64,000 nucleotides of DNA from Patescibacteria group bacterium (lineage in GTDB: Bacteria > Patescibacteriota > Minisyncoccia > Phycocordibacterales > UBA918): positions 6,853-70,852 of the forward strand of contig JAZKFU010000008.1 of assembly GCA_040386275.1 (NCBI GenBank), written 5' to 3'. Shown one piece after another: positions 1 to 59,045 of this stretch; the stretch's first letter is position 1; every line of letters starts with the position of its first letter. The notes under the pieces are model-generated. The model was not told the DNA's origin, did no database searches, and was given only the letters and a program-made list of their open reading frames with translations. The translations under genes were made by a program, and so were the position numbers.

Positions 1-843
1 CTCGCCATTCAAAAGTGGGGAAGCGAAGTCTTAGAACGCGTCGTCGTGATTACCGACGAAGGTTCTGTTTTTGCCGATACTGCTCAGACTAAAGGTATCG
101 CAGTACTAACCTTGCCGCCGATTATCGGTGGACGATTTTCAATGTTTACTGCCGTGGGTCTATTTCCCTTAGCGGCTTTAGGGGTATCAGTAACCGAGTT
201 ATTGAAGGGGGCCCAAGAAGTACGACGACAGAGTTTAAATCCTGACATTATGGTTAACCCGGCTGCACAGTCGGCGTTGGTAGCCTATCAGTGTTATCAG
301 CATGGGCAAATGGTGCATGATACCTTTGTGTTTAAACCCGAATTGGAGTCACTTGGTAAATGGTACCGCCAATTACTGGGAGAGAGTTTGGGAAAGACAG
401 TGGAAGGTGAAGGTGATACTGCACGGGTTGGGTTTGTTCCTACTGTGTCAGTAGGTTCAACTGATCTACATTCGGTCGCGCAATTATATCTCGGTGGTCC
501 GGCAAGAACGTTGACAACATTTATTCATTCAAATATAACAGCACATCCTCACACTAGTCCCGCCGAACGTGTTTTCCCAGAGCTGGCTCCGATGATAGCA
601 GGCAAAACGACCACCGAGATAATGGAGGCTATATTACAAGGGACTAAAACCGCCTACAATAATCAGTCATTGCCATTTATGGAAATTGTCTTTGATGATT
701 TGACCCCTTTTGAGCTAGGTGCCTTTATGCAATTTAAAATGATGGAAATAATGTACCTAGGGCGATTGTTCGGAGTCGATGCGTTTTCTCAGCCGGCGGT
801 GGAGTTGTATAAGGTAGAAACAAAGAAGTTGCTGGTAAGGTAA
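1..843 (+). CDS. pgi: glucose-6-phosphate isomerase, C-terminal part (5' end lies outside window)
   Basis: Reading frame open to the window edge; PGI signature PIIGGRFSMFTAVG and PGI-like C-terminal region. Confidence 0.8.
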   Translation, partial: LAIQKWGSEVLERVVVITDEGSVFADTAQTKGIAVLTLPPIIGGRFSMFTAVGLFPLAALGVSVTELLKGAQEVRRQSLNPDIMVNPAAQSALVAYQCYQHGQMVHDTFVFKPELESLGKWYRQLLGESLGKTVEGEGDTARVGFVPTVSVGSTDLHSVAQLYLGGPARTLTTFIHSNITAHPHTSPAERVFPELAPMIAGKTTTEIMEAILQGTKTAYNNQSLPFMEIVFDDLTPFELGAFMQFKMMEIMYLGRLFGVDAFSQPAVELYKVETKKLLVR

Positions 844-2614: not shown

Positions 2615-3064
2615 ATGGAAGAAATAATAAAAGCCTTCGGTATTGATGGTCGTCTGATCATCGTTCAAATCATCAACTTCGGGATTTTGATGGTGGCCTT
2701 GGTGTACTTCTTGTACAATCCGATTTTGAATCTCTTAGCCAGTCGCGAAGAGAAAATCGTGCAGGGTATCAAAGATGCTGAAGCCGCAGCAGCTGCTAAA
2801 GCCTCAGCCGATGCAGAGAAAAAAGTAATTTTAACTGACGCTCACAGTGAAGCGGCAGCGGTGAATGCGCGCGCTAAAGTGGCGGCTGACGCGACGGCAA
2901 GTGATATTCTCGCCAAAGCGCAAACTGACGCAGCAGCGGTGATTGCAGAAGCGGCAGTAAAGGCTGAACAATTAAAACTTCAAGCCGAACGTGATAGCGC
3001 TGCCGAGATTGCCAAAACTGCGATTCTTGCAGCCGAAAAAATTCTCACTCAAAAGAGTGCTTAA
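2615..3064 (+). CDS. atpF: ATP synthase subunit b
   Basis: N-terminal TM helix followed by a long Ala/Glu/Lys-rich helix; operon position. Confidence 0.8.
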   Translation: MEEIIKAFGIDGRLIIVQIINFGILMVALVYFLYNPILNLLASREEKIVQGIKDAEAAAAAKASADAEKKVILTDAHSEAAAVNARAKVAADATASDILAKAQTDAAAVIAEAAVKAEQLKLQAERDSAAEIAKTAILAAEKILTQKSA

Positions 3065-3070
3065 TAATTT

Positions 3071-3454
3071 ATGAAAGATACCTACGTTCACGCAGTGTTA
3101 GAACTTATTCAAGCCGGGCAACCGATTGAGACAGTTTTAACAAACCTTAAAAAGGTGCTGGCAACACGAGGTCATCTAAAATTACACGGTTCTATCTTGA
3201 ATGCGGTAATGACACAGTTAGAAGCAGCTCTCGCAAGTGAAGTGCCAACAGTAGTGCTCGCACGCGAAGGCGCAGTGACGGATGCCGCGATTAAAAATGC
3301 CCTAGCACAGCTCGGAGCTTCAGATGCTGACTATCGAGTGTCATATAATCCAAATATTATTGGCGGGCTTATCGCAACGTACAAGAGTAAACAGCTTGAT
3401 CAAAGTTACCAAACAAAGTTACGAGAATTATACCAATCCATTATTACCGCCTAA
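3071..3454 (+). CDS. atpH: ATP synthase subunit delta (short, 127 aa)
   Basis: Operon position between atpF and atpA; C-terminus IIGGLIATYKSKQLDQSYQTKLRELY resembles OSCP/delta. Confidence 0.6.
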   Translation: MKDTYVHAVLELIQAGQPIETVLTNLKKVLATRGHLKLHGSILNAVMTQLEAALASEVPTVVLAREGAVTDAAIKNALAQLGASDADYRVSYNPNIIGGLIATYKSKQLDQSYQTKLRELYQSIITA

Positions 3455-3471
3455 TTATTATCAAAACCACT

Positions 3472-5037
3472 ATGAGCACCACTATTATTGATCGCATTAA
3501 AAAAGAAATTGAAGCCCTAGACGTGGCTGTTGCTCCCAAAGAAATGGGGGTAGTGACTGCAGTCTCTGACGGAATCATTGAAATCACCGGCCTGACGAGT
3601 GCTCGGATGATGGAGATGGTTGTCTTTGGTGTCGGTGAAGGAGCAACGCTTGAAACTGCGCTCAAGCAAACGACTGTGCTGTATGGTTTGGTATTAAATC
3701 TTGAAGAGGATGTGGTGAAGGTGGTGGTCTTGGGTGAAAGTGCGGGCATTCGTGAAGGAATGACCGTGTTTCGTACAAACACCTTGCTTTCAGTACCTGT
3801 AGGTGACGGTATTGTGGGGCGGGTAGTTAATGCGCTTGGTGAAATGATTGATGGTAAAGGTGCTATTACGACAGATAAGAATATGCCGATTGAACGTGTA
3901 GCCTACGGTGTAATGGATCGCTCGTCGGTAAATGAACCGATTCACACGGGAATTAAAGCGATTGACGCGATGATTCCCATCGGACGTGGACAGCGCGAAC
4001 TTATTATTGGTGACCGCGGTACTGGGAAAACAACCATTGCAATTGATACTATCATCAACCAAAAGTACGAACCAAAAGAGAAACGACCAATTTGTATTTA
4101 CGTAGCAATTGGACAGAAGCGTTCTAAAACAGCGAACATCATGGCCCAGCTTGAAAAAGCCGGTGCGATGGAATACACAACGATTATCGCAACGAGTGCG
4201 TCTGAAGCCTCACCGCTACTTTTCCTTGCTCCGTTTACCGGTATGGCGATTGGTGAATACTTTATGGAACAAGGTCGGGATGTCGTTATTATTCTCGACG
4301 ATTTAAGTAAGCACGCGGTCGCGTACCGACAAATGTCACTCTTGCTCCGTCGTCCTCCAGGACGTGAAGCGTATCCAGGAGACATCTTTTACCTACACTC
4401 ACGTTTACTCGAACGATCAGCAAAGTTGTCTGCTGAACTCGGTGGGGGATCTATTACCGCCTTGCCGATTATTGAAACGCAAGAAGGTGACGTATCTGCG
4501 TATATTCCAACCAACGTAATTTCTATTACCGATGGTCAGATTTTCCTCGAGACTGATTTGTTTAACAAAGGAATTCGTCCAGCGCTTAACGTCGGTATCT
4601 CGGTATCTCGGGTAGGTTCTAGTGCACAAACTAAAGCCATGAAAGCCGTAGCCGGAAAGATTCGTCTTGAACTCGCACAATTCCGAGAGCTCGAAGCCTT
4701 TATGCAATTTGCGTCTGACCTGGATGCTGATACTAAAGCGCGGATTGATAGTGGTCGCAAGTATGTCGAGATGTTGAAGCAAACGCAAAACAACCCGATG
4801 CCGTTCTACAAACAAGTAATTTCAATTTATGGAGCTAACACTGGACTCTTCGACGGCGCTGATCCAAAAAACGTACGCGCTATTGAAGATGCGTACCAAG
4901 CCTTTATCGAGCGAGATCGAAAAGCGACGCTTGATGCGGTAGAAAGTACGCGCGCCTTGTCAGACGAACTAAAAGCTGATCTCGACAAATCAATTGTAGA
5001 TTTCAAAGAAGCCAATAGTAACTTGTATATTGCGTAA
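3472..5037 (+). CDS. atpA: ATP synthase F1 alpha subunit
   Basis: Walker A GDRGTGKTTIAIDTIINQK and alpha-subunit signature regions. Confidence 0.95.
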   Translation: MSTTIIDRIKKEIEALDVAVAPKEMGVVTAVSDGIIEITGLTSARMMEMVVFGVGEGATLETALKQTTVLYGLVLNLEEDVVKVVVLGESAGIREGMTVFRTNTLLSVPVGDGIVGRVVNALGEMIDGKGAITTDKNMPIERVAYGVMDRSSVNEPIHTGIKAIDAMIPIGRGQRELIIGDRGTGKTTIAIDTIINQKYEPKEKRPICIYVAIGQKRSKTANIMAQLEKAGAMEYTTIIATSASEASPLLFLAPFTGMAIGEYFMEQGRDVVIILDDLSKHAVAYRQMSLLLRRPPGREAYPGDIFYLHSRLLERSAKLSAELGGGSITALPIIETQEGDVSAYIPTNVISITDGQIFLETDLFNKGIRPALNVGISVSRVGSSAQTKAMKAVAGKIRLELAQFRELEAFMQFASDLDADTKARIDSGRKYVEMLKQTQNNPMPFYKQVISIYGANTGLFDGADPKNVRAIEDAYQAFIERDRKATLDAVESTRALSDELKADLDKSIVDFKEANSNLYIA

Positions 5038-5076: not shown

Positions 5077-5979
5077 ATGGCACTCAAACAAATTAAAAAC
5101 AAAATAATCTCCACCAAGAAAACCGGTAAAGTTACCAAGGCGATGGAGGCGGTGTCGGCGGTTAAAATGCGCAAGAGTCAGATGCGTGCGTTTGAAAGCC
5201 GTCCGTATGTTCGTACGGCCATGCGAATCCTTTCTCGACTCGCTGATTCACACGAAGGACTGGCTCATCCGCTCGCGCAAAAACGTGAACGGGGACGACG
5301 CTTGCTGATTATTGTTACCAGTGACAAAGGGTTAGCCGGGAGTGTAAACAGTGCGGTTTTAAAACGAGTAGATCACACGGTACTAGCTCATCCGGAAACA
5401 GATGTGGTGTGTATTGGTCGCAAGGCAAGTGAGTATGCCCAAAGACAAAACCTCAAAGTGCTCTATGAGCACACGAATGTCTCGGATGATATTTCTCTAG
5501 CCGAAGTGTCTGAGATTTCTACACTAGCCGTGAACCATTTTACGCAAGGTACCTATACCGGTGTTGACGTGGTGTATCAAAACTTCCTTTCTACCTTTGA
5601 ACAAGAGCCCGTGAAGCGTCAAGTATTACCTCTTGATACTGCAGAAATTATGACCATTATGGAAGGTATTAAGCCACGCGCCGGGGCAAAGATTCCCGTA
5701 GAGTCTCAAGCTACCGCACAAGAAACCTATACCGTCGAACCTTCAGCTGAAGCAGTATTAAATATCCTGATTCCTCAATTGGTTCAAGTGGTGGTCTATC
5801 ACGCGTTGTTGGAAAGTAAGGCGAGTGAACATAGTGCTCGAATGGTAGCAATGAAAAACGCCACTGATAAGAGTAAGGAGGTAACAAGGTTCCTCACGCT
5901 TAAATACAACAAAGCCCGTCAAGCAGCAATCACAGCCGAAGTAGCAGAGATAACCGGCGGTATGGAAGCAATGAAATAA
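5077..5979 (+). CDS. atpG: ATP synthase F1 gamma subunit
   Basis: MALKQIKNKIISTKKTGKVTKAMEAVSAVKMRK N-terminus and conserved C-terminal helix (ITAEVAEITGG). Confidence 0.9.
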   Translation: MALKQIKNKIISTKKTGKVTKAMEAVSAVKMRKSQMRAFESRPYVRTAMRILSRLADSHEGLAHPLAQKRERGRRLLIIVTSDKGLAGSVNSAVLKRVDHTVLAHPETDVVCIGRKASEYAQRQNLKVLYEHTNVSDDISLAEVSEISTLAVNHFTQGTYTGVDVVYQNFLSTFEQEPVKRQVLPLDTAEIMTIMEGIKPRAGAKIPVESQATAQETYTVEPSAEAVLNILIPQLVQVVVYHALLESKASEHSARMVAMKNATDKSKEVTRFLTLKYNKARQAAITAEVAEITGGMEAMK

Positions 5980-5994
5980 ATCCTCGATATGACT

Positions 5995-6095
5995 TCATTT
6001 GCTTTGTCAGACTGCAGTAAAATAAAACTCACCGTACAGAAAGTACGGCTCGCATTATTTTCTTTGTCTTTCGCGCAACTAAAGCCATCTCAAGA
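5995..6095. repeat. intergenic hairpin repeat family member
   Basis: ctgcagtaaaat…tcaCCGTACagaaaGTACGGctcgc…attttctttg… downstream of atpG. Confidence 0.7.
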
Positions 6096-6120
6096 ATTTA
6101 TAAGTTAAATTCTTTGGAAC

Positions 6121-6496
6121 GTCAGACAAGACGTTAAAATCAATCTTAATCTATGAAAACTACATTAAAGTTAATATGTCTATTTACTGTACTGTATGCA
6201 ACTTTGCTATTAATTTGGTATGTAGTTTTTGATTTGGTTGGAGTGTCTAGTAATTTTAATACTTTGTATATCTACACAATTCTATATTTACCGCCTACGA
6301 TTTTTATAATTCTATTTATTAGAGCTTTGATAAATAAAAGTAATGTAAAGTCCATAGGTATGTATGTCCTTGTGGGTTTAATCCTAGGTCTGGTAACAGC
6401 CGGTATCTATAATGTTACTCACGGGGGTTTTGGTCCTGAGTCTCTTGATTCAATATCAGACCCATCATAAGTTTGTCAGACAAGACGTTAAAATCA
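6121..6496. mobile_element. putative insertion within the atp operon: small ORF flanked by perfect 22-bp direct repeats (6121-6142 and 6475-6496)
   Basis: gtcagacaagacgttaaaatca occurs identically on both sides of ORF 6153-6470; the segment is markedly AT-rich and splits atpG from atpD by about 600 bp. Confidence 0.4.
6153..6470 (+). CDS. hypothetical small membrane protein (105 aa, 3 predicted TM segments), AT-rich codon usage
   Basis: ORF with three hydrophobic segments, compositionally distinct from neighbouring atp genes. Confidence 0.45.
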   Translation: MKTTLKLICLFTVLYATLLLIWYVVFDLVGVSSNFNTLYIYTILYLPPTIFIILFIRALINKSNVKSIGMYVLVGLILGLVTAGIYNVTHGGFGPESLDSISDPS

Positions 6497-6555
6497 TAAG
6501 TACTTTTAAGTAGTGAGTATCTAAAATTTAGACTTTCACTACTCAGTGGTACTGA

Positions 6556-7953
<1,398 letters not shown>

Positions 7954-7956
7954 TCT

Positions 7957-8202
7957 ATGGCAAAACTGTTACAACTCTCTATATCTAAAGTTGATGCGTC
8001 GGTCTTTGATGGTCCGGTTGTTTCGGTGACGGTACCGGGGACAGAAGGGGAGATGACTATTTTGGCGGACCACACTGCTCTTATATCAGTGTTAAAACCG
8101 GGAGTGATTACCCTAATAGCCGAAGGGGGTGCTACACAGACTTTTGAAACTGCCGGAGGTACTCTGGAAATCAGTAACAATCACGCAACGGTATTAATTT
8201 AA
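7957..8202 (+). CDS. atpC: ATP synthase epsilon subunit, N-terminal beta-sandwich domain only (81 aa)
   Basis: 4 bp after atpD; sequence resembles epsilon N-domain; no C-terminal helical hairpin is encoded. Confidence 0.75.
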   Translation: MAKLLQLSISKVDASVFDGPVVSVTVPGTEGEMTILADHTALISVLKPGVITLIAEGGATQTFETAGGTLEISNNHATVLI

Positions 8203-24910: not shown

Positions 24911-25140
24911 AGTACAGGTTGTCGCTCGTTTGTTTCCTTTCAGTCACAAACGTGACAGGCTACCTTTTCGAATCCTGCCGTAATTGACATTTAGTCACTT
25001 ACTCCCGGGGCAGGAATTTCGGTTGTTACACAACCAGTATCCCAATTGGTTCTTTTATTTCCTTTCAGTCATAAAAGTGCTCAATTGGGCTTCGAATCCT
25101 GACGTAAGGCACATTTAGTGCCTTACTCCCGGGGAGCATT
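24911..25140 (+). repeat. two tandem ~123-bp units containing tRNA-Asn 3'-end-like segments split by a stable 9-bp hairpin
   Basis: Units start tttcctttcagtca…; each has …cttcgaatcctg[c/a]cGTAA..CAtttaG..TTACtcccgggg…; a further tRNA-3'-end-like fragment in opposite orientation at 24868-24898. Confidence 0.6.
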
Positions 25141-25149
25141 AAAATCAAA

Positions 25150-25172
25150 AACACACCCGCAGGTGTGTTTAA
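25150..25172. terminator. bidirectional hairpin AAACACACC-cgca-GGTGTGTTT
   Basis: Perfect 9-bp stem between the tRNA 3' end (minus) and the plus-strand repeat array. Confidence 0.6.
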
Positions 25173-25183
25173 GATTTTATATG

Positions 25184-25506
25184 CTCCCCGGGCAGGATTC
25201 GAACCTGCGACCAATCGATTACACGTATTCATGCGTTACTGCATGGGTGGACTATATCATCACCGGTCACATTATTGTGCTGACGGTGCAAGGCGCTTCG
25301 AAAGTTTTCACTTCCTACTCCCGTTAGGGATAGTCTCTGAACCTTCAATTGGATTTCTCCAAAAGCTTGGCTGCTGATTGCCCTGGCTTGCGCCGTGGGG
25401 GTTCCAGCAATTCACCTTGTTTGCAATATCGATTTCTCGATAAGGCTGCTATTTTGAACATTGTTCAATGTTACAGTCGACTGCTCTACCGCTGAGCTAC
25501 CGAGGA
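25184..25506 (-). tRNA. tRNA-Asn(GUU) interrupted by a 251-nt group I intron (exon 1 = 25506-25473, exon 2 = 25221-25184)
   Basis: Minus strand: TCCTCGG-TA-GCTC-AGCGGTA-GAGC-A-GTCGA-CTGT | intron | TAA-TCGAT-TGGTC-GCAGG-TTCGAAT-CCTGC-CCGGGGA-G. All stems pair; the spliced anticodon loop CTGTTAA and discriminator G match bacterial tRNA-Asn. Confidence 0.8.
25222..25472 (-). ncRNA. group I (IC3-like) self-splicing intron in the anticodon loop
   Basis: Contains P (GAATTGCTGGAA), Q (AATCAGCAGCC), R (GGTTCAGAGACTATCC) and S (GATGATATAGTCC) core elements; IGS GCAG pairs with exon CUGU giving U:G at the 5' splice site; intron ends in G. Confidence 0.8.
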
Positions 25507-36639: not shown

Positions 36640-37010
36640 CGTGCATTTCACTGCATCTACGTCGTCAGCCTACGCAACACTGCGCTCACCGTATAAAAAT
36701 ACGGCTCTCTTGCGTTACTTGTCTTCCTAGTATCTACAGCAAACTGCCCAACCGTTTCATTACTTTACATTCGACTCGCACCATTTCGTTTGAGCGCCTA
36801 GCCCCTACTGCAAAATAACCTCTTCTCTATAGGTTGATGAATATTTAAAGTACGGCTCACGCGTTCGTTCGGTCGCGCCTAGCATCTACCATAAATTAAG
36901 CAGTCCTCGGATTTTTAAATCACATATTAGCTTTAAGTGTAGAGATAAGTAAGGCTCCCTTGCGTTACTTGTCTTTCTCGTATCTACAGCAATGGGTGTG
37001 CAGAGACTGC
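36640..37010. repeat. cluster of three to four copies of the intergenic hairpin repeat family
   Basis: …ctgcatctacg…ctcaCCGTATaaaaATACGGctc…gtatctacagcaa… ; …aaaGTACGGctcacg… ; …cttgcgttacttgtctttctcgtatctacagcaa. Confidence 0.6.
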
Positions 37011-46989: not shown

Positions 46990-47095
46990 CGGCGCACTTC
47001 TGCGTTGAATTTCATAAAATAAACTTCAACGTACAAAAAGTACGCCTCAGCTTATTTTCTTCATTCGCCTTGAATTGCATCCACTTACAAAACCC
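46990..47095. repeat. intergenic hairpin repeat family member (variant AACGTAC…GTACGCC)
   Basis: ttctgcgttgaatttcataaaat…tcaACGTACaaaaaGTACGCctc…attttcttca…ccttgaattgcatc. Confidence 0.6.
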
Positions 47096-53004: not shown

Positions 53005-53090
53005 ATTTTATACTGCGTTGCCTGCATTATTTTAGTCCTCACCGTACAAAAAGTACGGCTCGAACAAAAATAACTAGTCGCCTTGTCTAA
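53005..53090. repeat. intergenic hairpin repeat family member
   Basis: tactgcgttgcctgcattatttt…tcaCCGTACaaaaaGTACGGctcgaac…. Confidence 0.65.
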
Positions 53091-58939: not shown

Positions 58940-59045
58940 CAGAATCCCTGCATCTACTGCGTTGCTGCTCAGTAAAATGAAGTTCAACGTACTAATGTAC
59001 GCCTCACTTTATTTTCTTCGCGCGTCTTGTATCTACAGCAATTCT
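58940..59045. repeat. intergenic hairpin repeat family member
   Basis: cctgcatctactgcgttgctgctcagtaaaat…tcaACGTACtaatGTACGCctc…attttcttcg…cttgtatctacagcaa. Confidence 0.65.

Follow-up and report, generated by a model that had tools for sequence, protein, structure and literature searches.

Few gene arrays in bacteria are as conserved as F1Fo operons. The operon examined here, from a Patescibacteria MAG, raises the question of why a small membrane-protein gene lies between atpG and atpD, and what role falls to the two perfect copies of a 22-nt sequence that bracket it. The initial annotation of the same 64-kb stretch of DNA (64,000 nucleotides, hereafter the window) had favored a small mobile cassette, with target-site or terminator duplication, over a lineage-specific accessory subunit.

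Architecture of the atpG–atpD gap

Gene calls and Pfam assignments in the window gave the operon order atpB-E-F-H-A-G-[ORF]-D-C. Upstream, the insert is bordered by atpG (5077–5979, + strand; F1 gamma subunit; Pfam ATP-synt, E = 9.7e-83), whose protein is identical to an NCBI record annotated as the F1 gamma subunit of a Patescibacteria MAG, and downstream by atpD (6586–7953, + strand; F1 beta subunit; Pfam ATP-synt_ab, E = 3.2e-70). As annotated initially, the two genes are 606 bp apart, with an ORF for a 105-aa protein with three transmembrane helices between them; gene calls and Pfam placed no recombinase or transposase inside or beside this gap. Shine-Dalgarno sequences are apparently missing upstream of the atp genes in this organism. 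We also considered a mosaic operon produced by atpG exchange, given that the atpG product shows 67% amino-acid identity versus 96–97% for atpA and atpD, and dropped it: nucleotide identity is uniform (68–84%) all along the operon, and the contrast at the protein level arises because protein constraints differ.

The gap opens with D1, a repeated intergenic 3′-end element (6004–6075, + strand, outer coordinates approximate) that corresponds to the hairpin-repeat copy reported earlier. It comprises a terminator-like hairpin (6031–6049), which the terminator scan called solely on the complementary strand, followed by ATTTTCTTT. Copies of the D1 family occur in the window at 2480, 6012, 47009, 53022 and 58955, every one starting ~20–30 nt past the stop codon of a + strand gene. 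In the relatives L102 and L104, too, a homologous copy lies behind atpG, and in the sister MAG L001 one follows atpD, where the window has none.

At its other end, the gap holds a long imperfect hairpin ahead of atpD (6499–6556, + strand; inverted repeat I1, 6499–6553), which occurs once in the window. It terminates in the palindrome CTCAGTGGTACTGAG (6542–6556), from which an AT-rich leader runs to the atpD start at 6586. This leader hairpin, located between the second 22-mer and atpD, had not been mentioned in the initial annotation. Across 21 loci its consensus helix comprises 20 pairs, of which 14 show compensatory changes, and G·U pairs are numerous; the hairpin is present in genomes with filled as well as empty sites. 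The stretch GGUGGUACCG within it resembles a T-box sequence, a likeness that we treat as coincidental because the Rfam T-box model did not match and atpD is no amino-acid gene.

ORF105 is a real gene of an orphan family

ORF105 (6153–6470, + strand) encodes 105 residues with three predicted hydrophobic helices, modeled by AlphaFold2 at residues 2–29, 33–61 and 65–90 with low confidence (pLDDT 66). It is indeed far more AT-rich than its neighbors, with a GC content of 0.31 and a GC3 of 0.25 compared to 0.44–0.49 and 0.37–0.53 for the atp genes. A search of 5.8 billion clusters and 1.84 billion representatives (~15 billion proteins) returned two homologues only — a 99% sister copy and one distant protein at 35–38% identity — confining the family to this MAG, its 99% sister and one 572-bp contig. 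The alignment with the distant homologue is full-length, and motifs and hydrophobic helices are conserved in it. No Pfam or NCBIfam (E ≤ 0.01), PADLOC or PHROG family was assigned. Stop-free runs of equal length (at least 106 codons) arose in 15 of 2,000 shuffles of the gap. ORF105 is a real gene, and it most likely encodes a dispensable accessory membrane protein that makes use of operon transcription, not a subunit of the ATP synthase.

The atpG–atpD junction is a hypervariable slot

Among 30 relatives, the distance between atpG and atpD exceeded 250 bp in 16 and was just 4–140 bp in 14 relatives other than L102 and L104, while comparable gaps at any other atp junction were found in 0–5 relatives. 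The occupants belong to at least 16 unrelated ORF families, mostly with 2–4 transmembrane helices, and also include NUDIX, nucleotidyltransferase and 23S-IVS proteins. The nucleotidyltransferase insert is adjoined by a putative HEPN-like ORF. With inserts of so many families in about half of the relatives, we consider the junction a hypervariable gene slot, in which ORF105 is one variable cargo. Even relatives whose beta subunits are 91–97% identical carry unrelated proteins or nothing there. None of the papers found in our literature search described, for CPR bacteria, an insert at the atpG–atpD junction.

Empty sites exist in L102 and L104, where atpG is followed by D1, ~40 nt, one 22-mer, the leader hairpin and atpD, with no ORF; the window equals this arrangement plus 354 bp, consisting of ORF105 and a second 22-mer. 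In L112, three ORFs (ORFa, ORFb and ORFc) lie between atpG and the hairpin that precedes atpD; a 22-mer with 1 mismatch separates the first two, and another 22-mer the last two. L134, home of the sole distant ORF105 homologue, has one variant of the 22-mer 8 nt ahead of that ORF and a second variant after it, 10 nt before the next ATG. L003 and L007/L106 have the leader hairpin, not the 22-mer, duplicated around ORFs. L007 and L008 form a filled/empty pair whose junction lies within CTCGGTGATACCG, and in L111 a foreign atpG 3′ fragment abuts the 22-mer at its 3′ edge, an apparent recombination junction. The junctions of filled/empty and replacement alleles fall at the motif or at the leader hairpin.

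The 22-mer belongs to a motif class found beyond the operon

The 22-mer, GTCAGACAAGACGTTAAAATCA, occurs on the + strand at exactly 6121–6142 and 6475–6496, so that the bracketing repeats were annotated correctly, and no further copy with ≤3 mismatches exists in the 64-kb window. None of 100 shuffles yielded such a repeat, ruling out chance as the origin of the pair. With its closing pair included, copy 1 (6120–6142) can form a hairpin of C6120–G6133 and GUC–GAC around the loop AGACAA, followed by UUAAAAUCA, and ends 10 nt before the ORF105 start codon. Copy 2 (6474–6496), closed by U6474·G6487, begins 4 nt past the ORF105 stop codon and ends 2 nt ahead of the atpD leader hairpin.

Identity to the 22-mer is complete (22/22) in the window and seven other genomes (L002, L010, L102, L104, L105, L112 and L119), whose atp coding DNA is only 68–84% identical. 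The motif is present once in relatives that lack an ORF and once per extra ORF in relatives that have more. In ten loci (L002, L007, L010, L097, L102, L104, L105, L106, L113 and L119) it is followed by no more than ~12 nt, the hairpin and atpD, while in L112 and L134 it is again placed 8–10 nt before an ATG, and at every atp locus its orientation is that of the operon. Seven relatives (L003, L004, L005, L009, L012, L019 and L020) have slot ORFs without any 22-mer, which is therefore not required for an ORF to occupy the slot.

Beyond the window, the 22-mer recurs in relatives, and its motif class in phages and at rRNA and tRNA loci, where its orientation, wherever scored, is that of the adjacent tRNA or rRNA genes. 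Among viral contigs, the real 22-mer matched 12 contigs in 4 contexts, compared to 0 for 4 composition-matched control 22-mers, and the wider motif class appeared in well over a hundred phage contigs, often within tRNA arrays. The 22-mer precedes a small ORF in T4-like pelagimyophage contigs; the motif lies 1–2 nt past a tRNA 3′ end in the L084 group, L188 and L220; and in L085 it directly precedes a boxA-like sequence in the 16S–23S spacer, with L197 as a further candidate. One group of 16 contigs has its matches within coding sequence, and the cross-phylum matches may be functionally heterogeneous.

The consensus of these instances is a 4-bp hairpin, N-GUC/GAC-N′, with the loop AGNNAA, followed by UUAAAAUC(A). 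Three of the four pairs were set by the search pattern, and covariation is therefore possible in one pair only, the closing pair. In 28 instances this pair was C–G (11), U·G (7), U–A (6), A–U (2) or other (2, the mismatched L095 and L105), a pairing score reached by none of 500 shuffles; a relaxed search added G–C and additional A–U closing pairs. The U·G pairs point to a sequence that is read single-stranded, as RNA.

Several identities were tried and discarded. Complementarity to 16S/23S rRNA, as in a translational enhancer or TURBS-like element, gave a best duplex of −14.8 kcal/mol, equal to the shuffle median, with rRNAs taken from the unrelated locus L085 only, and no rRNA fragment matched with ≤6 errors. 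Rfam 15 produced 0 matches at the gathering score in the window and 13 loci scanned, with small self-cleaving ribozymes and the ATPC motif among the models; nothing relevant emerged on 5950–6620 at E ≤ 10 or on one phage instance at E ≤ 1, and the HDV, pistol, hatchet and twister models had no match. A pistol-like fold (hairpin plus UUAAAU) lacks, by eye, the pseudoknot partners that it needs. An HDV/theta-like fold lacks a P1 partner: a manual check, distinct from a descriptor search, located no downstream complement of GUCAGAC in the window, and the partial complement in some phage instances spans 5 nt only. The sequence itself appeared in no paper that our literature search found.

These data bear directly on the idea of a target-site or terminator duplication. 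Genomes without the ORF, L102 and L104, do carry one copy, but the sequence is invariant between lineages, separates the tandem ORFs of L112, flanks the L134 homologue and recurs in unrelated taxa. Judged from this distribution, the 22-mer is a strongly selected cis-element, and at most also a substrate for recombination. The initial proposal of a cassette insertion survives in that the ORF is an accessory, lineage-specific insert for which empty sites exist, but not in its view of the repeats as a target-site or terminator duplication.

A candidate RNA-level signal at cistron starts

We favor, at a probability of roughly 0.55, an explanation in which the F1Fo operon of this Kaiserbacteria/Paceibacteria-like lineage contains a slot whose motif would serve both as an RNA-level cistron-start signal and as homology for the swapping of ORFs, with ORF105 as one alternative occupant. 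The motif stands directly ahead of each downstream unit, be it a slot ORF, whose start lies 8–10 nt further on, or the atpD leader hairpin, which follows almost at once, and this position, together with the covariation, suggests that it acts on RNA, from the sense strand, as a form of punctuation. It could be an endonucleolytic processing site, a module that defines or stabilizes 5′ ends, or a point of re-start after the terminator-like D1; such a role would let atpD–atpC and any inserted ORF be expressed despite the upstream elements. Since unit boundaries repeatedly carry these 22 nt, as well as the leader hairpin, both could also provide the homology through which ORFs are added, deleted or swapped. 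In the window, a unit of motif plus ORF105 would have been added to an ancestor resembling L102 and L104, giving rise to the apparent direct repeats. We infer recombination at the motif from the positions of the junctions in the window, L111 and L112, as opposed to events directly observed.

An alternative that we regard as unlikely treats the 22-mer as a site for site-specific recombination, resembling att or attC, or else as the conserved terminus of a mobile cassette that is non-autonomous, such that ORF105 plus 22-mer integrated at a resident 22-mer via a recombinase encoded elsewhere and the repeats represent attL/attR-like cores. This would account for an ORF bracketed by perfect repeats, for the single-copy empty sites of L102 and L104 and for the tandem arrays of L112. 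The conserved block has sharp boundaries and unrelated flanks, the L111 junction coincides with its 3′ edge, ORF105 is atypical in composition, and the motif is found in phage contigs and beside tRNA genes, which are classical integration targets. However, the gap and its borders are free of recombinase and transposase genes, and inspection revealed neither a dif/attC-like dyad of binding arms nor an upstream inverse-core partner. Other cassettes are bounded by the leader hairpin and not by the 22-mer, and each of the 17 non-atp loci checked holds a single copy (≤5 mismatches), with no flanking pair. The ORF105 family has moreover retained its flanking motifs down to 38% protein identity, which points to a long-term function and not to a recent insertion scar, and the U·G closing pairs again suggest RNA reading.

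It is likewise improbable that the 22-mer is an internal DNA promoter, with TAAAAT as its −10 element and upstream contacts in place of a −35 box, that restarts transcription after D1. The repeat would then amount to two promoters, one for a near-leaderless ORF105 mRNA and one for a hairpin-led atpD mRNA. TAAAAT does occupy motif positions 15–20 and start codons follow 10–12 nt further on; the motif is downstream of the terminator-like D1 in the window, L102 and L104; and the apparent lack of Shine-Dalgarno sequences upstream of the atp genes is consistent with this scheme, as is an analogy with the promoter and stem-loop cassettes of T4-like phages (PMC2839356). A near-copy with a 1-nt insertion lies within the atpG coding sequence of L006 and L032, both of which lack the gap motif; it could drive atpD, and its location is easier to reconcile with a promoter acting in DNA than with a cleavage site. 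Yet the promoter scan and inspection showed that a sigma-70-type −35 box at 16–18 nt spacing is absent in every context, on which ground we rejected a sigma-70 promoter, and instances 1–2 nt past a tRNA sit in co-transcribed tRNA/rRNA units, where processing would be expected and a promoter would not. A promoter would also leave the covarying, U·G-tolerant closing pair unexplained, would be used by no other gene in the 64-kb window, and would have to reconcile 22/22 identity with a usual level of promoter conservation that is well below it.

That ORF105 is a lineage-specific F1Fo accessory subunit or assembly factor, with the repeats incidental, is very improbable. It would be a small three-helix membrane protein encoded in the sense direction inside the operon, with a homologue whose hydrophobic helices are conserved, and in this it resembles AtpI, AtpZ and the AtpQ/AtpR proteins of N-type ATPases, small multi-helix membrane proteins within atp operons. 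Those, however, belong to conserved families whose place in the operon is fixed (ahead of atpB, or between atpC and atpB), whereas ORF105 matches none of them or any other Pfam or NCBIfam family, including ATP-synthase accessory ones, has neither a conserved presence nor a conserved position, and was recovered from three sources among billions of proteins. The initial annotation had already judged a subunit the less likely option, and we consider it effectively excluded because close relatives, with 91–97% identical beta subunits, carry unrelated ORFs or nothing at the same place. Least tenable of all is a chance open frame in an AT-rich spacer whose repeat is a local spacer duplication, which would suit the very low GC and GC3, the lack of an annotated family and the low structure confidence but not the rarity of so long a frame in shuffles, the full-length homologue, or a 22-mer that is conserved in many genomes and is therefore no private duplication.

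Implications for operon organization

The RNA-level signal that we favor may extend well beyond this locus. Tentatively, the 22-mer could be the founding example of an undescribed and widespread RNA punctuation motif, N-GUC-AGNNAA-GAC-N′ plus UUAAAAUC, that marks and processes the boundaries of polycistronic units, among them phage tRNA arrays, rRNA spacers ahead of boxA and core-operon cistrons in Patescibacteria. It might be recognized by a conserved endoribonuclease or, as a minimal element, process itself, and in the atp operon it would double as a recombination handle within an array of small membrane-protein cassettes that resembles an integron but lacks a recombinase.

In an array as conserved as the F1Fo operon, it is unusual to find a slot whose small membrane-protein genes are replaced more quickly than the genes on either side diverge. 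Its presence suggests that these ultra-small symbiotic bacteria employ a core operon with strong, constitutive transcription as a platform from which fast-changing envelope proteins are expressed; such proteins become candidates for interaction with a host, phages or neighbors. The boundary element is the more general lead: 22 nt have stayed letter-perfect though the protein-coding DNA is saturated with changes, and their spread points to a conserved factor or RNA mechanism absent from the Rfam families and the papers found. If the element is a processing or start signal, it would offer a handle on how cistrons are delimited without Shine-Dalgarno sequences, as well as a simple marker for further cassette slots.

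Comparison with known systems

Resemblances to dif/Xer sites, attC, Tn7 TnsB sites, IS200/IS605 ends and CRISPR repeats were each considered, and the defining architectures did not fit. CRISPR repeats (Cas6-type hairpin plus 8-nt handle) and solitary phage repeat units share with the motif a short hairpin with an 8–9-nt A-rich tail, a sharp 3′ boundary and an occurrence in both phages and bacteria, but here the unit measures 22–23 nt, the 'spacers' are ORFs of 330–400 bp, and there are no cas genes or arrays. Nor does the insert resemble a transposon, as its 332-bp interior consists of ORF105 only, with no terminal inverted repeats and no transposase family.

Integron cassettes and dif modules are alike in having promoterless, same-orientation small ORFs, mostly of unknown function, behind an upstream promoter, with a recurrent short site and both empty and filled alleles. 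Unlike in those systems, no integrase or Xer gene is nearby: atp genes lie on both sides in place of intI and attI, and no integrase was called in the L001 flanks. The 22-mer has neither the bipartite R″-L″/L′-R′ palindrome of attC nor the 11-6-11 architecture of dif; no inverse core is found upstream of either copy to complete RYYYAAC ... GTTRRRY, and GTTAAAA misfits GTTRRRY. The 22-mer also precedes the ORFs, whereas the folded attC follows them.

REP/BIME or RNase-processing hairpins, which adjust expression differentially within operons, and the tRNA-punctuation concept of transcript processing likewise place a structured element between the cistrons of one transcript; the motif differs from REP sequences in its sequence specificity, its very small size and its low copy number. 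Theta (HDV-like) ribozymes reside at phage tRNA 3′ ends, where they cleave (PMC10879173), and some motif instances similarly abut tRNA 3′ ends in phage tRNA arrays. The HDV-like P1/P2/P3 nesting was not found, however, nor was the nested double pseudoknot that such ribozymes form when their first 7 nt (P1) pair with a strand beyond P3, with a catalytic C in J4/2.

The closest analogue, judged by this likeness, appears to be the PeSL (promoter-early stem-loop) regulatory cassettes in the hyperplastic regions of T4-like phages, where recombination between repeated motifs explains the insertion, deletion and replacement of small genes (PMC2839356, Arbiol et al. 2010; PMC4122927, Comeau et al. 2014). 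PeSLs contain canonical sigma-70 −35/−10 boxes and strong terminator stems and are present in many copies per genome, whereas the window offers TAAAAT without a −35 box, a 4-bp stem and two copies in 64 kb, within a bacterial core bioenergetic operon and not a phage, and the motif is far more invariant and cross-phylum. Both systems nevertheless place a short conserved motif with a stem-loop, including G-T pairs in PeSLs too, between a stop codon and the next start, and in both these intergenic motifs flank variable ORFans within hypervariable regions that lie between conserved core genes.

Anatomy of the atp operon

Gene calls and domain searches placed a complete F1Fo operon within the window: atpB (1299-2084), atpE (2186-2446), atpF (2615-3064), atpH for the delta subunit (3071-3454), atpA (3472-5037), atpG (5077-5979), atpD (6586-7953) and atpC for the epsilon subunit (7957-8202). 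The gamma subunit is identical to a deposited protein named 'MAG: Patescibacteria group bacterium'. Re-checking of coordinates, repeats and composition established that all features described in the initial annotation are present: 606 bp separate atpG from atpD; this gap holds a hairpin-repeat copy, belonging to a repeated intergenic element that we call D1, at about 6004-6075; and a 105-aa membrane ORF (ORF105, 6153-6470) lies between two exact copies of the 22-mer GTCAGACAAGACGTTAAAATCA (6121-6142 and 6475-6496) and is more AT-rich than the atp genes (GC 0.31 and GC3 0.25 versus 0.44-0.49 and 0.37-0.53). No further 22-mer copy was found in the 64-kb window at up to 3 mismatches, and the repeat was absent from 100 of 100 shuffles. 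By inspection, no Shine-Dalgarno-like sequence was visible 5′ of atpD, atpF or ORF105.

Two subunits are short: epsilon (81 aa), which comprises the N-terminal beta-sandwich only, and delta (127 aa), which the OSCP profile matches over the C-terminal two-thirds only, a match that presumably fits the reduced ATP synthases of Patescibacteria. Elsewhere in the window, Rfam identified a group I intron at 25229-25467 on the minus strand (79.9 bits, E 1e-18). The adjoining minus-strand sequence resembles a tRNA's 3′ portion (GGTCGCAGGTTCGAATCCTGCCC...); tRNA-like 3′ halves lie around 24926-25180, and T-arm-like repeats are duplicated at 24967-25010 and 25091-25134. ARAGORN called no tRNA in the entire 64-kb window; the intron and tRNA-like sequence are probably an intron-interrupted tRNA gene.

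A variable gene slot between atpG and atpD

Scanning a genome collection with the gamma subunit yielded about 30 Kaiserbacteria/Paceibacteria-type relatives, and a metagenome scan about a dozen additional atp loci; comparison across them revealed the atpG-atpD gap to be a variable slot. Its length ranges from 4 to 1844 bp among relatives and is above 250 bp in 16 of the 30, a length reached at any other atp junction in at most 5. The inserts are unrelated to one another across loci. The window's insert is a 105-aa transmembrane ORF, and L002 (gamma subunit 91% identical) has a transmembrane ORF of 139 aa; L003 carries two (105 and 115 aa), and others encode transmembrane proteins of 107 (L005), 75 (L007), 64 (L019), 97 (L020), 184 (L105), 139 (L113) and 101 aa (L111). 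A common transmembrane family occupies the slot in L010 and L119, and a soluble family of 108-111 aa in L004, L009 and L097. Further inserts encode a nucleoside-deoxyribosyltransferase-like protein (L012), a NUDIX protein (L025), a 23S-rRNA-IVS protein (L030) and, in L029, a nucleotidyltransferase with an adjoining putative HEPN-like ORF and others. Most inserts start at TAAtATG at the atpG stop codon, an arrangement that means translational coupling.

Nucleotide identity among these genomes is just 68-84%, even in atpA and atpD, and the compared genomes are therefore old lineages; the same figure overturned a first impression of a recombinant atpG. Inserts at other atp junctions are occasional and much rarer: a 233-aa secreted or membrane-anchored orphan lies between atpA and atpG in L002 (1628-2329), atpA-atpG inserts also occur in L009, L012 and L020, and atpD-atpC inserts in L032 (1089 bp), L009 and L013.

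ORF105 itself is a real gene, but an orphan. An open frame of its length arose in 0.75% of gap shuffles. A word-indexed search of 5.8 billion proteins returned as sole match a 99% copy in the sister MAG, whose atpG-atpD gap is virtually identical to the window's, and one further homologue, P0006 (110 aa), came from exhaustively scanning 1.84 billion representatives with HMMER; it is 35-38% identical over its full length and keeps the hydrophobic helices and the motifs IYTxxYLP and GxGP. Searches of Pfam, NCBIfam, PADLOC and PHROG assigned ORF105 to no family, and its AlphaFold2 model has three helices at modest confidence. The idea of an accessory subunit, initially considered the less likely one, is rejected, as ORF105 fails on sequence and on conservation, including in comparison with the accessory proteins AtpI, AtpZ and AtpQ/R; it is best seen as dispensable cargo exploiting the operon's transcription.

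Empty sites, arrays and recombination junctions

The empty site that the initial annotation had proposed to look for was found in L102 and L104, where the order is atpG, D1, about 40 nt, one 22-mer, a long leader hairpin and atpD; relative to this exact counterpart without an insert, the window has an additional 354 bp, comprising ORF105 and one extra 22-mer. One ORF, then one 22-mer, then the hairpin is the order in L002, L010, L097, L105, L106, L113 and L119. L112 holds three ORFs, with a 22-mer between first and second and between second and third, 8-10 nt before the next ATG, a spacing that matches copy 1 in the window. The distant homologue of ORF105, on a 572-bp contig, is likewise placed between two diverged copies, of which GTCAGTAAAGACGTTAAAATCA precedes its ATG by 8 nt and GTCAGATAAGACGTTAAAATCT precedes the following ATG by 10 nt, and the motif-ORF-motif arrangement has therefore been kept down to 38% protein identity. 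The 22-mer is thus a conserved boundary element, present once per downstream unit; an insertion scar is ruled out by the single copy in empty sites, the tandem arrays and the diverged copies around the homologue.

The leader hairpin can also be the boundary. In L003 it is the duplicated element, two near-identical hairpins surrounding the second ORF, and comparison of L007 and L106 (filled) with L008 (empty) places the junction within CTCGGTGATACCG, again with the hairpin as boundary. In L111 (about 230-290, minus strand) the 22-mer runs at its 3′ edge directly into the final 30 nt of a foreign atpG allele (..TGGMEALKK*), after which come TAAtATG and a D1-like start. This junction reads as a fossil of recombination between operon variants, and the join to foreign atpG marks the boundaries as apparent sites of recombination joins; as judged from the sequences, such junctions occur at both boundary elements, 22-mer and leader hairpin. 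Of the mobile cassette originally proposed, the accessory, swappable cargo and the empty sites stand, but its repeats are an ultra-conserved, probably functional motif.

Structure of the boundary elements

The base preceding the 22-mer pairs with its position 13. Across 28 distinct instances this closing pair is C-G (11), U.G (7), U-A (6), A-U (2) or unpaired (2), a covariation score reached by 0 of 500 shuffles; the other three pairs were imposed by the search pattern, and the closing pair alone could covary. The pairing data thus define the element as N-GUC/GAC-N′ with loop AGACAA, followed by UUAAAAUCA, and at the homologue's locus, found independently via its protein, motif changes are confined to the loop and the last base.

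The leader hairpin (6499-6553, within a conserved leader at 6499-6556) is long and imperfect and ends in the palindrome CTCAGTGGTACTGAG just 5′ of atpD. At the corresponding place in some 20 related loci, its 20-25-bp stem is free to vary in sequence between conserved flanks (GTAGTACTTAG ... CTCRGTGGTACYGAG-TTTCAAACA). A consensus of 21 loci has 20 pairs, 14 with compensatory changes, and many G.U pairs; covariation supports it well as a sense-strand structure, in filled and empty slots alike. It matches no Rfam family; in appearance it is a candidate RNase III-type substrate or regulatory 5′-UTR element.

D1 spans about 80-110 nt with the layout CTACTGCGTTG .. CTGCAGTAAAAT .. CACCGTAC-loop-GTACGG .. 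ATTTTCTT .. CGCCTTGTATCT. Besides the copy in the gap, a repeat search located copies at 2468-2540, 46998-47070, 53012-53080 and 58955-59045; 3′ parts related to D1 occur at 36697-36742 and 36947-36992. All copies sit 20-30 nt 3′ of the stop codon of a plus-strand gene and have a terminator-like hairpin. D1 is polymorphic between near-identical genomes: the sister MAG (L001, about 6800-6950) has a copy after atpD that the window lacks. It could represent a terminator/attenuator family or be MITE-like.

The motif outside the atp operon

A metagenome scan with the 22-mer, leaving two positions free, matched unrelated contexts besides atp loci. In a gut-bacterial rRNA operon (L085 group; L085 3374) the motif starts 1-2 nt after tRNA-Ala within the 16S-23S spacer, and a boxA-like sequence comes next, ahead of the 23S rRNA. 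It also lies 5′ of a tRNA array (L083 6170, minus strand), in phage tRNA arrays (L093, L095), ahead of a Shine-Dalgarno sequence and small ORF in T4-like pelagimyophages, and in yet other contexts. Among viral contigs the original pattern matched 12 contigs in 4 contexts, and four control sequences (composition-matched, reversed or partly scrambled) matched none. Relaxing the loop (GTCAGNNAAGACNTTAAAATC) returned more than 120 viral contigs, with loops that fit AGNNAA and a closing pair that again covaries, now including G-C. Phage contigs widely carry the class N-GTC-AGNNAA-GAC-N′-TTAAAATC, with many instances in tRNA arrays, some 2 nt after a tRNA (L188 6761 and L220 1701, both minus strand) and others between two tRNAs, about 180 nt behind one and 75-160 nt ahead of the next. 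The motif is also present in L146-type contigs, at L197 4600 and at over 100 additional viral loci; some instances precede boxA-like sequences, and one 16-contig group with the motif inside coding sequence is probably unrelated.

In one phage tRNA-array group (L139 1500-1658, L188 6600-6761 and L093 100-269, all minus strand; L156, L142, L220), a conserved structured RNA of roughly 130 nt (.. GGATTAGAGTTAAACTACCAC .. ATATGTGGCTTTGTGACAAACG .. GAGGCAAAGTAAACTC) begins with the motif at its 5′ end; this RNA has its own covarying helix (ACCGTT/AACGGT versus GACGTT/AACGTC), and its lone Rfam signal is a weak abiF match (24 bits versus a gathering score of 37). No Rfam family matches the motif in the atp, phage or rRNA/tRNA loci tested, and the 22-mer appears in no paper of the literature searched. 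That this boundary motif represents a new RNA element of wide distribution is a realistic possibility.

In L006 (5627-5650) and L032 (5628-5649), the atpG coding sequence contains a near-copy of the 22-mer that differs by an inserted base (GTCAGAgCAAGACGTTAAAATCA), located in a variable loop region of the gamma subunit; these lineages have a short atpG-atpD gap with neither motif nor leader hairpin. It could be the motif's origin, an internal signal or a gene-conversion product.

A proposed RNA signal and its alternatives

We propose that the 22-mer functions in the sense-strand RNA, marking cistron starts or punctuating the transcript, whether as a processing or 5′-end module or for restart after D1. 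A promoter keeps some weight, given the correctly placed TAAAAT within the motif, its position after the terminator-like D1 and the near-copy within the coding sequence of L006; an RNA role is favoured over it because the covarying closing pair tolerates U.G, the motif occurs 1-2 nt after tRNAs inside co-transcribed units, no -35 box was found and the window's other genes lack the motif. An att site also keeps some weight from the perfect bracketing of ORF105, the association with phages and tRNAs and the sharp motif edges, but neither a recombinase nor att architecture is present. Alongside a role of the 22-mer in RNA, its repetition and that of the leader hairpin would allow homologous or illegitimate recombination to add, remove and swap ORFs.

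Comparison with known systems

Theta/HDV-like ribozymes share the motif's tRNA-adjacent position (PMC10879173), but the fold that they require was not found in it. Integron cassettes and dif modules have array logic in common with the slot, which lacks the site and the recombinase that define them. Among described systems, the PeSL cassettes of T4-like phages come closest: their motifs, a promoter plus a stem-loop, lie on either side of ORFans in hyperplastic regions and bring about modular shuffling (PMC2839356, PMC4122927). The atpG-atpD slot follows the same logic, although its motif lacks the defining sigma-70 promoter and its host is a bacterial core operon.
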